From: a virus
Lineage: Duplodnaviria; Heunggongvirae; Uroviricota; Caudoviricetes
Reading direction: 5' to 3' (one strand)
IMG/VR virus record: IMGVR_UViG_3300000289_000189
Length of the DNA stretch: 6,952 nucleotides
Shown piece by piece: positions 2,560 to 6,952 of the stretch; position 1 is the stretch's first letter, and each line of letters begins with the position of its first letter. The notes beneath the pieces are model-generated. The model did not search any database. It was not told the DNA's origin and saw nothing but the letters and a program-made list of their open reading frames with translations. The translations under genes and the position numbers were made by a program.

Positions 2560-3061
2560 TTTCTTACTCCTTTCACCCAAAAAAAGCGCACAACGACACA
2601 CGCGTGTCTGACGTGACAAGGATAGTCCAGGACAGGCTTGCAGGATACCCTTTCTACGTAATCTTCCTGGTAAAATCATGGAGAAAATGAAACAAGGTTA
2701 ATTTGTTGTTTCATTGTTAAAAAATGATATTGCCGTTGCCTTTTTTGTAGCCAGAGATTTACGCCTTCGCAGAACGTTAGATTTTCGAAATCTTTACAAA
2801 CCGGGAGTGGTAAGAGATATATCGGCATTTATCAGATCGTTAGGTGGCTATAAGTCANNNNNNNNNNNNNNNNNNNNNNNNNNNNNNNNNNNNNNNNNNN
2901 NNNNNNNNNNNNNNNNNNNNNNNNNNNNNNNNNNNNNNNNNNNNNNNNNNNNNNNNNNNNNNNNNNNNNNNNNNNNNNNNNNNNNNNNNNNNNNNNNNNN
3001 NNNNNNNNNNNNNNNNNNNNNNNNNNTTCACGATCCCGCAGTGTGATTTGAGGAGTTTTCA

Positions 3062-3429
3062 ATGGAATATAAAGATCCAATGCATGAGCTGTTGAGCAGC
3101 CTGGAACAGATTGTTTTTAAAGATGAAACGCAGAAAATTACCCTGACGCACAGAACAACGTCCTGTACCGAAATTGAGCAGNNNNNNNNNNNNNNNNNNN
3201 NNNNNNNNNNNNNNNNNNNNNNNNNNNNNNNNNNNNNNNNNNNNNNNNNNNNNNNNNNNNNNNAAAAGGGACAGGGTTAAAAATCGATGATTTCGCCCGG
3301 GTTTTGGGCGTATCAGTCGCCATGGTAAAGGAATGGGAATCCAGACGCGTGAAGCCTTCAAGTGCCGAACTAAAATTGATGCGTTTGATTCAAGCCAACC
3401 CGGCATTAAGTAAGCAGTTGATGGAATAG
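3062..3429 (+). CDS. yiaG: HTH-type (Cro/C1, XRE-like) transcriptional regulator YiaG; interrupted by N-run 3182-3263 with a frame change
   Basis: ATG 3062 preceded by GAGGAG (3050-3055). N-terminal segment MEYKDPMHELLSSLEQIVFKDETQKITLTHRTTSCTEIEQ (frame 2). C-terminal segment from 3265, KGTGLKIDDFARVLGVSVAMVKEWESRRVKPSSAELKLMRLIQANPALSKQLME*, in frame 1 with helix-turn-helix character; stop TAG at 3427-3429. Confidence 0.82.
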
Positions 3430-3559
3430 ACTTTTATCCACTTTATTGCTGTTTACGGTCNNNNNNNNNNNNNNNNNNNNNNNNNNNNNNNNNNNNNNNN
3501 NNNNNNNNNNNNNNNNNNNNNNNNNNNNNNNNNNNNNNNNNNNNNNNNNNNNNNNNNNN

Positions 3560-3620
3560 AATCATAAATATGAAAAATAATTGTTGCATCACCCGCCAAT
3601 GCGTGGCTTAATGCACATCA
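3560..3620 (+). promoter_or_regulatory. cspA: cspA promoter: AT-rich UP element, -35 TTGCAT (3584-3589), 17-nt spacer, -10 CTTAAT (3607-3612)
   Basis: Hexamers and spacing read directly. The AT-rich tract 3560-3583 lies immediately upstream of the -35. The predicted transcription start near 3621 (ACGGTTTGACGTACAGACC...) gives a 159-nt leader, consistent with the known cspA 5' UTR. Confidence 0.75.
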
Positions 3621-3779
3621 ACGGTTTGACGTACAGACCATTAAAGCAGTGTAGTAAGGCAAGTCCCTTCAAGAGTTATCGTTGATACCCCTCGTAGTGC
3701 ACATTCCTTTAACGCTTCAAAATCTGTAAAGCACGCCATATCGCCGAAAGGCACACTTAATTATTAAAGGTAATACACT
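3621..3779 (+). promoter_or_regulatory. cspA: cspA long 5' UTR (about 159 nt) with the cold-box element TGACGTACAGA at 3627-3637
   Basis: The cold-box sequence is present near the 5' end of the leader, and the leader runs to the cspA ATG at 3780 with a weak SD (AAGG, 3767-3770). The cspA leader is an established RNA thermosensor. Confidence 0.75.
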
Positions 3780-3992
3780 ATGTCCGGTAAAATGACTGGT
3801 ATCGTAAAATGGTTCAACGCTGACAAAGGCTTCGGCTTCATCACTCCTGACGATGGCTCTAAAGACGTGTTCGTACACTTCTCTGCTATCCAGAACGATG
3901 GTTACAAATCTCTGGACGAAGGTCAGAAAGTGTCCTTCACCATCGAAAGCGGCGCTAAAGGCCCGGCAGCTGGTAACGTAACCAGCCTGTAA
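3780..3992 (+). CDS. cspA: Major cold-shock protein CspA (70 aa)
   Basis: Translation [70 protein letters not shown] matches E. coli CspA as I recall it; cold-shock domain RNP1/RNP2 motifs KGFGFI and VFVHF; stop TAA 3990-3992. Confidence 0.97.
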
Positions 3993-4019
3993 TCTCTGCT
4001 TAAAAGCACAGAATCTAAG

Positions 4020-4057
4020 ATCCCTGCCATTTGGCGGGGATTTTTTTATTTGTTTTT
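4020..4057 (+). terminator. Rho-independent terminator of cspA
   Basis: Stem ATCCCTGCC (4020-4028) / GGCGGGGAT (4033-4041) with one G-U pair and a 4-nt loop, followed by TTTTTTTATTTGTTTTT (4042-4057). Confidence 0.8.
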
Positions 4058-4140
4058 CAGGAAATAAATAATCGATCGCGTAATAAAATCTAGTATTATT
4101 TTTGTGAAAAATAAATTTGGGTGCAATGAGAATGCGCAAC

Positions 4141-4171
4141 GCCGTAAGAAAGGCGGGAATAACTTCCCGCC
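4141..4171 (-). terminator. Putative 3' terminator hairpin of the hokA transcript
   Basis: Perfect 8-bp stem GGCGGGAA (4152-4159) / TTCCCGCC (4164-4171) with loop TAAC; on the minus strand it is followed by TTTCTT (complement of 4146-4151). It lies 3' of hokA, but the hokA stop codon is hidden in N-run 4187-4289, so the spacing is unknown. Confidence 0.4.
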
Positions 4172-4289
4172 GAAGACTCTAACTCTNNNNNNNNNNNNNN
4201 NNNNNNNNNNNNNNNNNNNNNNNNNNNNNNNNNNNNNNNNNNNNNNNNNNNNNNNNNNNNNNNNNNNNNNNNNNNNNNNNNNNNNNNNN

Positions 4290-4419
4290 AAAACGCCGCC
4301 AGCTCATAACTCTCCTGTTTAATATGCAATTCACACAGTGAATCTCTTATCATCCAGGTGAAAAATAAAAGCGTGAAACAAATCACTATTAAAGAAAGTA
4401 ATCTATATTTCTGCGGCAT
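4290..4419 (-). CDS. hokA: Hok-family type I toxin HokA, visible N-terminal 43 codons (C-terminus and stop hidden in N-run 4187-4289)
   Basis: Minus-strand translation from ATG (complement of 4417-4419): MPQKYRLLSLIVICFTLLFFTWMIRDSLCELHIKQESYELAAF..., a Hok/Gef-family small membrane toxin with a hydrophobic transmembrane stretch; G-rich SD-like run just upstream; genomic context between cspA and glyS matches the known hokA locus. Confidence 0.8.
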
Positions 4420-4479
4420 TCCCAGCCCCCTGTGTTGATTTCCAACGAGTAAGAGGCTAACCTTATGGTGTTCAGGCAT
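4420..4479 (-). other. mok-like upstream reading frame, in frame with hokA (MPEHHKVSLLLVGNQHRGLG-)
   Basis: ATG at complement of 4477-4479 with SD GAGG about 7 nt upstream (complement of 4487-4490); no stop before the hokA ATG in the same frame. In hok/sok systems hok translation is coupled to an upstream mok frame. Confidence 0.4.
4435..4463 (+). promoter_or_regulatory. Candidate promoter for the Sok-like antisense RNA (sokA): -35 TTGATT (4435-4440), 17-nt spacer, -10 TAACCT (4458-4463)
   Basis: Hexamers read directly on the + strand, antisense to the mok/hokA leader, firing away from hokA across the mok translation-initiation region, which is where Sok promoters sit in hok/sok loci. The -10 is weak and there is no experimental support. 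Confidence 0.3.
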
Positions 4480-4540
4480 AGGGTAGCCTCACTTTGATTT
4501 ATAGTCAGGTGGGGCTTTTCTCTGTCTGCCTTTCGGTGAA
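4470..4540 (+). ncRNA. sokA: Putative SokA antisense RNA (extent approximate)
   Basis: Inferred from the candidate promoter and hok/sok architecture; the region is complementary to the mok SD and start. No clean intrinsic terminator was identified, so the 3' end is a guess. Confidence 0.25.
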
Positions 4541-4776
4541 TACCTGAGACAAACAGTCTCAAGCACCCGTGGCTATTCTAGCNNNNNNNNNNNNNNNNNN
4601 NNNNNNNNNNNNNNNNNNNNNNNNNNNNNNNNNNNNNNNNNNNNNNNNNNNNNNNNNNNNNNNNNNNNNTTTCTTCTCCTTGATATAATCCTAAAAAAAC
4701 CTCATAAAATTAATATATGAGATAATCTTTATTCAGCAGAAGATTATTAAAGGTTGCTGTATTATTTAGCGATAAT

Positions 4777-4819: not shown

Positions 4820-6952
4820 TTACTGCAACAGCGAAATATCCGCAACGCGCAGGAACAGTTCGCGCAGTTTCTCCAGCATGGTCAGACGGTTGAGACGNNN
4901 NNNNNNNNNNNNNNNNNNNNNNNNNNNNNNNNNNNNNNNNNNNNNNNNNNNNNNNNNNNNNNNNNNNNNNGTCATCAACCATGACCATCACTTTATCGAA
5001 GAAAGCATCGACCGGTTCACGCAGCTCTGCCAGTTCGACCAGCGCATCCTGGTAACGACCTTCCGCAAAGTACGGCTCCAGCTTGTCACGTAGCACCACC
5101 ACCTGCATCGCCAGTTTAATTTCTTCCGGCTCTTTCAGAGTAGAGGCATTCACGCGATCGCTCAGCACTTCGTCAGATTTCGCCAGGATGTTAGATACAC
5201 GTTTGTTCGCCGCCGCCAGTGCTGCAGCTGCTTCCAGGGTACGGAAGTGCGATACCGCTTTCATACGGGCATCGAAATCAGCCGGACGAGTCGGACGACG
5301 CGCCAGTACCGCCTGGATGGTGTCAACGGTATAACCTTCGTCCTGATACCAGGCGCGGAAGCGACCGAGCATAAAGTCGATAACATCATCAACTACGTTG
5401 GCATTAGTCAGCTTATCGCCATACAGACGCACCGCTTCTTCGGTCAGCGTTTGCAGATCAAGGTTGAGGTTCTTCTCAACGATAATTCGCAGCACGCCAA
5501 GTGCGGCACGACGCAGCGCAAACGGGTCTTTGTCGCCTTTCGGATGCTGGCCGATACCGAAGATACCCGCCAGAGTATCCATCTTGTCAGCAATCGCCAG
5601 CGCACAGGCTACCGGGTTAGACGGCAGGTCATCACCGGCAAAGCGCGGCTGATACTGCTCATTCAGCGCCACCGCGACATCTTCCGCTTCGCCATCGTGA
5701 CGCGCATAGTGCATCCCCATAACGCCCTGGGTGTCGGTGAACTCGAAGACCATGTTGGTCATCAGGTCGCACTTAGACAGCAGACCCGCACGGGTAGCGT
5801 GGTTAACGTCAGCGCCAATCTGTTCAGCAATCCAGCCAGCCAGCGCCTGGATGCGGTCAGTTTTGTCGCGCAGCGTCCCCAACTGTTGCTGGAACAACAC
5901 GGTTTGCAGGCGCGGCAGGTTATCTTCAAGACGTTTTTTACGGTCGGTGTTGAAGAAGAACTCGGCATCCGCCAGACGCGGACGAACGACTTTCTCGTTA
6001 CCAGAGATAATTTGCTGCGGATCTTTCGATTCGATGTTGGCAACGAAGATAAAGTTCGGCAGCAGTTTGCCGTCGTTCGCATACACCGGGAAGTATTTCT
6101 GGTCACCTTTCATGGTGTAAACCAGCGCTTCAGCCGGCACCGCGAGGAATTTCTCTTCGAATTTTGCGGTCAGAACGACCGGCCACTCCACCAGCGAAGC
6201 CACTTCTTCCAGCAGGCTTTCGCTTAAGTCAGCGTTACCGCCAATCTTACGCGCTGCTTCTTCGGCATCGGCTTTAATCTTCGCCTTACGTTCTTCGTAA
6301 TCGGCGATGACTTTCCCACGCTCACGCAGAANNNNNNNNNNNNNNNNNNNNNNNNNNNNNNNNNNNNNNNNNNNNNNNNNNNNNNNNNNNNNNNNNNNNN
6401 NNNNNNNNNNNNNNNNNNNNNNNNNNNNNNNNNNNNNNNNNNNNNNNNNNNNNNNNNNNNNNNNNNNNNNNNNNNNNNNNNNNNNNNNNNNNNNNTTGCC
6501 GGAATGACTTTGTCGCCCAGCAGCAGGGTCACGGTGTGCACCGGACGCACGAAGTGCACGTCGCTTGCGCCCCAACGCATCAGTTTCGGGATCGGCAGTT
6601 TCGCCAGAGAAGTCGCAACCATATTCGGCAGCAGTGCTTCGGTGCTTTCGCCCTTCACATGGGCGCGATACAGCAGCCATTCGCCTTTATCGGTAGTCAG
6701 ACGCTCAGCCTGGTCAACGGTAATACCGCAACCACGCGCCCAACCTTCTGCCGCTTTGCTCGGTTTGCCTTCAGCGTCGAACGCCTGGGCAATCGCCGGG
6801 CCGCGTTTTTCGATTTCACGATCCGGTTGCGCTTCCGCCAGGTTAGCTACTTTCAGCGCCAGACGACGCGGAGCAGCAAACCATTGAACGGTGCCGTGTG
6901 CGAGGCCAGCGTTATCCAGCTCCGCAGTAAAATTCGCAGCAAAGGACTCAGC
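4820..6952 (-). CDS. glyS: Glycine--tRNA ligase beta subunit, 3' ~80% (N-terminus beyond window end); interrupted by N-runs 4898-4970 and 6332-6495 with frame changes
   Basis: Minus-strand translation: C-terminal ...[25 protein letters not shown] with stop TAA at complement of 4820-4822. Long middle segment (4971-6331) [31 protein letters not shown]...[10 protein letters not shown]. Upper segment (6496-6952) [152 protein letters not shown]. All match E. coli GlyS as I recall it. Confidence 0.93.

Follow-up and report, generated by a model that had tools for sequence, protein, structure and literature searches.

The stretch of DNA analysed here (6,952 bases, hereafter the window) carries, between cspA and glyS, a locus that is best explained as the chromosomal hokA/mokA/sokA type I toxin-antitoxin system of Escherichia coli in its IS-free form. 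A single T-to-A change at the end of the toxin gene would remove the hokA stop codon and make both HokA and the in-frame Mok-HokA product 28 residues longer. We consider that this IS-free locus with a lost stop is probably a decayed copy and not a working one. The system itself is already known, being a textbook chromosomal copy of hok/sok, and its IS-free state is that of roughly half of E. coli.

Results

The window is a segment of the E. coli chromosome in a stitched or low-quality assembly

The gene order of the window, yiaD-ghrB-yiaF-yiaG-cspA-hokA-glyS, is that of the E. coli chromosome, and its visible bases are 99.8% identical to complete E. coli genomes such as NZ_AP022036. The placement of hokA between cspA and glyS, as expected of the Escherichia gene, matches the annotated neighbours in K-12 and in other complete genomes. 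The cspA thermoregulator RNA (Rfam RF01766) was matched over its full length with 501 bits at window positions 3620-4047 on the plus strand, and the cspA terminator (4018-4045) and the hokA transcript, at its 3' end, face each other.

To check the gaps, the blocks between N-runs were aligned one by one to the closest complete genome. The window is interrupted by ten N-runs (1157-1273, 1459-1534, 1780-1789, 2858-3026, 3182-3263, 3461-3559, 4187-4289, 4583-4669, 4898-4970, and 6332-6495), every one of which exceeds the sequence that it replaces in that genome by 64-122 nt. Two of them lie within the essential glyS gene, with excesses of 64 and 68 nt. Since neither is a multiple of three and both would break the glyS frame, the lengths of the N-runs must be artefacts, and gap length is therefore useless for inferring insertions. 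Around hokA, the 103 N at 4187-4289 stand for 16 nt in the closest genomes, and the 87 N at 4583-4669 stand for 12 nt in the relatives. The interval between hokA and glyS, which the initial annotation had put at about 400 nt, is accordingly about 325 nt long in the relatives.

The same 112 nt, comprising the 3' end of ghrB and its terminator, occur twice (1668-1779 and 1790-1901) on the two sides of the 10-N run. The copies differ at two positions (1814 and 1867), which points to an unmerged contig overlap. Block 1790-2857 has seven near-private differences from the closest genome, clustered near the block ends, and no complete genome matched this block above 99.4%. From the N-run lengths, the unmerged overlap, and this divergent block, we conclude that the window is a stitched or low-quality assembly.

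The block that holds the visible part of hokA (4290-4582, 293 nt) has an exact match in no complete genome, the best being 99.7% identical. It contains K-12-type alleles, C at 4294 and T at 4313 (the latter giving Glu36), whereas its left flank is of the type found in two other comparison loci (L001 and L003). The haplotype of the block is thus recombinant-looking or rare, as judged from these alleles.

Toxin frame and mok start of hokA

The hokA gene lies on the minus strand. It starts with the ATG at 4419..4417, and 43 codons (MPQKYRLLSLIVICFTLLFFTWMIRDSLCELHIKQESYELAAF) are visible down to 4291, followed by the first base of codon 44 at 4290 (toxin ORF, 4290..4419). The 43 visible residues match Pfam HOK_GEF (PF01848) with 69.8 bits against a cut-off of 22, with the whole domain covered, and the NCBIfam HokA equivalog NF007290 with 112.8 bits against a cut-off of 89. 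The N-run at 4187-4289 lies over codons 44-49. In the closest genomes it corresponds to 16 nt, TAGCCTGCAATTTAAA on the minus strand (..LACNLK), which are identical in L001 and L015; the gap is also 16 nt long in L003. By comparison with these relatives, the hokA frame would run through codons 44-49 without an earlier stop.

A mokA-like start (4477..4490, minus strand) was found 20 codons upstream of hokA and in frame with it, consisting of an ATG at 4479..4477 and a Shine-Dalgarno sequence GAGG at 4490..4487, 7 nt before the ATG. In K-12, mokA is annotated with a 3' end common to hokA. A predicted mok frame with its own Shine-Dalgarno sequence, on which hok translation depends in the hok/sok architecture, is thus present.

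The initial annotation had recognized a hokA/mok/sokA type I locus between cspA and glyS, with 43 visible Hok codons, an in-frame upstream mok-like start, and a 3' hairpin, and had assigned it to a known class of system. All of this is borne out: the protein profiles, the Rfam match described below, and synteny agree on the locus and on the minus strand, and the hairpin is a G+C-rich stem-loop at 4171..4152.

Predicted folds of the hok mRNA and the sokA antisense gene

We then considered the RNA elements. Rfam RF01794 ('sok') matched over its full model (1-157) at 4568..4417 on the minus strand, with 124.9 bits, E = 5e-29, and a gathering score of 59. Although the family is named 'sok antitoxin', the match lies on the hok mRNA strand and stops at the AUG of hok, so that RF01794 here describes the mRNA leader and not the orientation of the antisense RNA. 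The 5' leader would accordingly extend from a presumed transcription start at 4568 to the hok ATG (4417..4568, minus strand). A probable −10 element of the hok promoter, TAGAAT, lies 7 nt upstream of the leader start (4575..4580, minus strand), and the −35 region probably lies under the N-run at 4583-4669. A scan for consensus promoters called neither the hok nor the sok promoter; both depart from consensus, and the scan is uninformative.

The hokA mRNA was rebuilt from the minus strand of the window, with the 16 hidden bases filled in from the closest relatives. The full-length form of 365 nt has a predicted folding energy of −134 kcal/mol and a z-score of −6.5 against shuffled sequences. Its 5' end, GGGUGC-UGAG (nt 1-6 and 8-11, within the tac element at 4568..4558), pairs with the fbi element CUCAUUGCACCC at 4130..4119 (4119..4130 on the minus strand) in both the minimum free energy and the centroid folds, giving the tac/fbi closure. 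The fbi element does not vary in nine loci, and covariation support for tac/fbi pairing was nil, the pairs being invariant in all loci gathered. Folding also places a ucb box, AGCCCCAC (about 4516..4509, minus strand), in pairing with the mok Shine-Dalgarno sequence. The G+C-rich stem-loop GGCGGGAAGUUAUUCCCGCC (4152..4171, minus strand) stands after the normal position of the hokA stop, and its hairpin GGCGGGAAGTTATTCCCGCC (4171..4152) is followed by TTTCTT. By likeness to plasmid R1, this stem-loop would form the end of the processed mRNA. In a form cut at 4140, after the 3' stem-loop, tac is predicted to pair with ucb, and the region of the mok start forms a hairpin of its own.

These folds suggest how the mRNA would be controlled. 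The full-length transcript would be closed by pairing of the 5' tac with the 3' fbi, with ucb covering the mok Shine-Dalgarno sequence; the processed form would refold so that tac pairs with ucb and the region of the mok start becomes a hairpin. The complementary 5' and 3' mRNA elements to which the initial annotation had pointed are thus found in the predicted full-length fold. The fbi element, at 4119-4130, falls just outside its range of 4141-4560.

The sokA antisense gene was placed on the plus strand at 4435..4525 by mapping the K-12 sokA remnant and by folding. The remnant annotated in K-12 (L002, 2578-2612) maps to window positions 4491-4525. The region is predicted to fold stably (z = −5.0). 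A putative sok promoter consists of TTGATT (4435-4440), a 17-nt spacer, and TAACCT (4458-4463), from which a SokA RNA of about 4469 to 4525 would be made, complementary to the Shine-Dalgarno sequence and start codon of mok. The antisense RNA would in this way cover the mok start. While the promoter is a reading of the sequence, the sokA DNA is intact and identical to that of IS-free relatives. By these models, the window has every RNA element that a hok-family locus should have.

Both IS150 target sites are uninterrupted

The initial annotation had placed an IS150 element adjacent to hokA in K-12 and had seen no insertion sequence here; the insertion sites were examined by alignment. In the K-12 annotation a 1,443-bp IS150 does lie between hokA and glyS. 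The left junction of this element aligns with window position 4450/4451, and K-12 is also without the 39 nt of window 4451-4489. A second type of IS150 insertion, in the opposite orientation, corresponds to 4500/4501, 50 nt away. IS150 is thus found in the hokA leader in two configurations (loci L002, L005, and L006). In the window both target sites are contiguous, and neither a transposase ORF nor an IS end is visible in its sequence. The alignment to K-12 hokA and the IS150 junctions that had been proposed as a check thus agrees with the claim that the visible locus holds no IS.

The sequence under the flanking N-runs was a further point raised by the initial annotation. As those runs replace only 16 and 12 nt in the closest genomes, no IS need be hidden in them; given those 16 nt, however, the stop of hokA would be lost, as described below. 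An IS beneath the N-runs was also considered as a candidate and set aside as unnecessary, all ten runs being overlong, including those with a frame-breaking excess in glyS. The length of an N-run in this window is no guide to the presence of an insertion.

The IS-free state is not in itself notable, contrary to the earlier emphasis. Of 5,425 complete E. coli genomes, 2,817 (~52%) have the 293-nt block at 4290-4582, with its two IS150 sites, in one contiguous piece; the K-12-type IS150 junction was found in 1,663 of 5,426 and the second type in 1,114 of 5,426. Other Escherichia lineages, among them E. albertii and E. ruysiae, likewise have a hokA free of IS. In E. coli C, an IS-free hokA locus was characterised as early as 1999 (Pedersen & Gerdes 1999, as reported in bioRxiv 10.1101/2025.08.07.668861 and PMC3562002). 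The region where hok and sok overlap looks like a recurrent or ancient target of IS150.

The hokA stop codon is replaced by a leucine codon

The initial annotation had taken the locus for an uninterrupted and potentially functional system, pending confirmation that the Hok C-terminus and stop are intact. It had overlooked that the K-12 stop position is visible in the window (4182..4180) and reads TTA. At window position 4181 the plus strand has a where K-12 and the outgroups have t, which changes TAA to TTA on the minus strand and makes codon 51 of hokA (4180..4182, minus strand) a leucine codon. Where the family normally stops after about 50 codons, the window therefore has an open codon 51. 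Seven of the eight comparison loci, namely K-12 and six other sampled E. coli haplotypes, have t at 4181. TAA is found in all five representatives of Escherichia species that were compared (E. albertii, E. ruysiae, Escherichia sp. E1V33, and two E. coli), which indicates that TTA is the derived state. Between the complete genomes L001 (TTA) and L004 (TAA), this base is the single difference in the 680 nt that span cspA to glyS.

The frequency of the allele was estimated by exact 30-mer search of about 5,420 complete E. coli genomes. The TTA 30-mer was found in 141 genomes (~2.6%), and its TAA counterpart in 1,843. The other identity classes differ by exactly 141 from one search to the other, which limits TTA to ~2.6% of complete genomes and to one flanking haplotype. 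The stop-loss allele is also present in at least 1,000 contigs and in E. coli W.

With the 16 hidden nt of the relatives in place, a length common to all those examined, the hokA ORF runs 27 codons past codon 51 to a TAA at 4098..4096. If the hidden codons of the window keep this frame, the locus fails the check for an intact stop that the initial annotation had set. The read-through extension, ESSAGSYSRLSYGVAHSHCTQIYFSQK (4096..4179, minus strand), crosses both the 3' stem-loop and fbi. Together with the leucine of codon 51 it adds 28 residues, so that HokA grows from 50 to 78 aa, or to 98 aa when counted from the mok start. Both the 78-aa and the 98-aa products are on public record, including in E. 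coli W and KO11FL, where the 78-aa product is recorded as 'small toxic polypeptide'. In both TTA genomes that were checked, the two closest complete genomes, PGAP treats hokA as a pseudogene with 'missing C-terminus'.

The same substitution affects a small ORF on the other strand. K-12 annotation places ysaE (23 aa) antisense to the 3' end of hokA, at window 4132-4182 on the plus strand. There the SNP at 4181 changes a leucine codon, TTA, to a TAA stop, which shortens YsaE from 23 to 16 residues.

In a window of this quality, the TTA codon or the IS-free appearance could in principle result from sequencing error, chimeric assembly, or an IS lying in an assembly gap. Wrong N-run lengths throughout, the duplicated overlap left unmerged with its mismatches, the seven differences and the 99.4% ceiling of block 1790-2857, and the general tendency of IS elements to cause assembly gaps all lend themselves to such an account. 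We nevertheless regard it as extremely unlikely. The 627-nt block that contains TTA is 100% identical to a complete genome of the same allele, and a sequencing error at 4181 is ruled out by the occurrence of TTA in 141 complete genomes and in E. coli W. N-runs recur every few hundred bases, even in glyS, and so are not gaps caused by IS, while both known IS150 sites are visible and intact. A chimeric join of the TTA codon to the 5' half of hokA is also unlikely, because the E36 variant of the window and the stop loss occur in cis on three independent contigs; it is from these analogous contigs that the linkage of TTA to the 5' half would follow in the window.

Discussion

Probable consequence for the toxin

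On the basis of the lost stop, the derived minority allele, the PGAP pseudogene calls, and the precedent of plasmid R1, we find the earlier description of the locus as potentially functional to be unsupported. Loss-of-function suppressors recovered in R1 hok include six substitutions that remove the stop codon and extend the protein by 17 aa (PMC9841398). An 8-aa FLAG tag at the C-terminus of R1 Hok abolishes toxicity as well, and the processed, translatable R1 mRNA has its terminal stem in the G+C stem found just after the stop (PMC9841398).

By analogy with R1, processing would leave the hokA mRNA with a 3' end near 4150, short of the stop at 4098..4096. As that stop is located past the 3' stem-loop, the processed and translatable form would lack it and would be a non-stop message from which ribosomes run off. 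R1 is the model for the site of 3' processing, for the non-stop outcome, and for the predicted loss of toxicity. On these grounds the HokA toxin appears likely to be inactive or much weakened in the TTA lineage. The locus would thus be decaying by point mutation, whereas in about half of E. coli genomes the leader is occupied by IS150.

A locus that is intact in function, with a normal 50-aa toxin under the control of SokA, is what the RNA elements, the mok start, the Sok region, and the two IS150 sites, all of them intact, would suggest when taken without the codon at 4180..4182. The coding sequence of K-12 HokA is toxic on over-expression (bioRxiv 10.1101/2025.08.07.668861), which is in keeping with such a view. 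It is very unlikely in the face of TTA at the normal stop position, of the treatment of this allele as a pseudogene by PGAP, and of the loss of function that accompanies stop loss in R1 hok (PMC9841398). Even the IS-free hokA of E. coli C, with its stop intact, gave neither post-segregational killing nor activation by rifampicin, according to the account of Pedersen & Gerdes 1999 in bioRxiv 10.1101/2025.08.07.668861.

Alternatively, the extended HokA of 78 aa (98 aa from mok) might still be a working membrane toxin, the locus being a normal hok/sok module whose product has a longer periplasmic tail. There is no change in the N-terminal transmembrane segment or in either cysteine (C29 and C46), and the Pfam match extends over the full domain. 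Tagged chromosomal Hok proteins, HokA included, were reported to be still lytic (bioRxiv 10.1101/2025.08.07.668861), so the 78-aa protein could stay toxic. That the allele has persisted (141 complete genomes, at least 1,000 contigs) also fits, but is equally expected of a neutral pseudogene. The R1 stop-loss and C-terminal FLAG variants, in contrast, are non-toxic (PMC9841398), and, as the counterpart of the stem-loop at the end of the processed R1 mRNA comes before the downstream stop here, the translatable mRNA would be without a stop. We therefore find a working 78-aa toxin rather doubtful and retain the view that the locus is a decayed copy.

A more speculative proposal, which we hold to be quite unlikely, is that one palindromic SNP (TAA/TTA, 4180-4182) both removes the hokA stop and truncates YsaE, and that the translatable mRNA is a natural non-stop message, either rescued by tmRNA or serving as a stress-conditional toxin. 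If it were true, the handling of a non-stop hokA message by tmRNA would be a previously undescribed natural route of silencing a type I toxin, and would concern E. coli W and about 2.6% of complete genomes.

For the decayed copy that we favour, the significance is modest. Beyond correct annotation the finding matters little, and the stop-loss allele is a small detail at the level of annotation. Loss of the toxin's stop in a lineage to which the industrial strain E. coli W belongs is in line with the long-standing idea of a decay of chromosomal hok loci along several independent routes.

Comparison with known hok/sok systems

The closest annotated counterpart is hokA/mokA/sokA of K-12 MG1655 (b4455, b4647, and b4614), which occupies the same position between cspA and glyS. 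Its Hok protein is identical over the 43 visible residues, and the 3' stem-loop, fbi, the leader, and the 3' part of Sok are the same. K-12 has IS150 at 4450/4451 and the 39-nt deletion, which together remove the mok start, the Sok promoter, and the Sok 5' end, whereas the window has neither. Conversely, K-12 keeps the TAA stop where the window has TTA. The hokA/sokA locus of E. coli C, set beside the window by its published description as far as this is quoted in later work, is likewise IS-free, with the regulatory elements of the hok family and a SokA antisense RNA. In that description the E. coli C toxin is treated as full length, unlike that of the window.

The hok/sok (parB) system of plasmid R1 has the same architecture and the same predicted switch, with tac/fbi closure, ucb over the mok Shine-Dalgarno sequence, a 3' stem-loop, and an antisense Sok. 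The refolding predicted for the window matches the switch described for R1 hok (PMC9841398), and Pfam HOK_GEF and Rfam RF01794 match both. R1 hok/sok differs in being plasmid-borne, in having mok out of frame with hok where that of the window is in frame, and in encoding a Hok of 52 aa with its stop intact; it mediates post-segregational killing. The nearest likeness to the allele described here is provided by the stop-codon suppressors of R1 hok (Le Rhun et al., NAR 2023, PMC9841398), in which a single-base loss of the stop extends the protein through the 3' stem-loop, as it does here. Those suppressors are laboratory mutants with an extension of 17 aa, whereas the window carries a natural allele that adds 28 residues and is fixed in a minority lineage of E. 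coli, including E. coli W.
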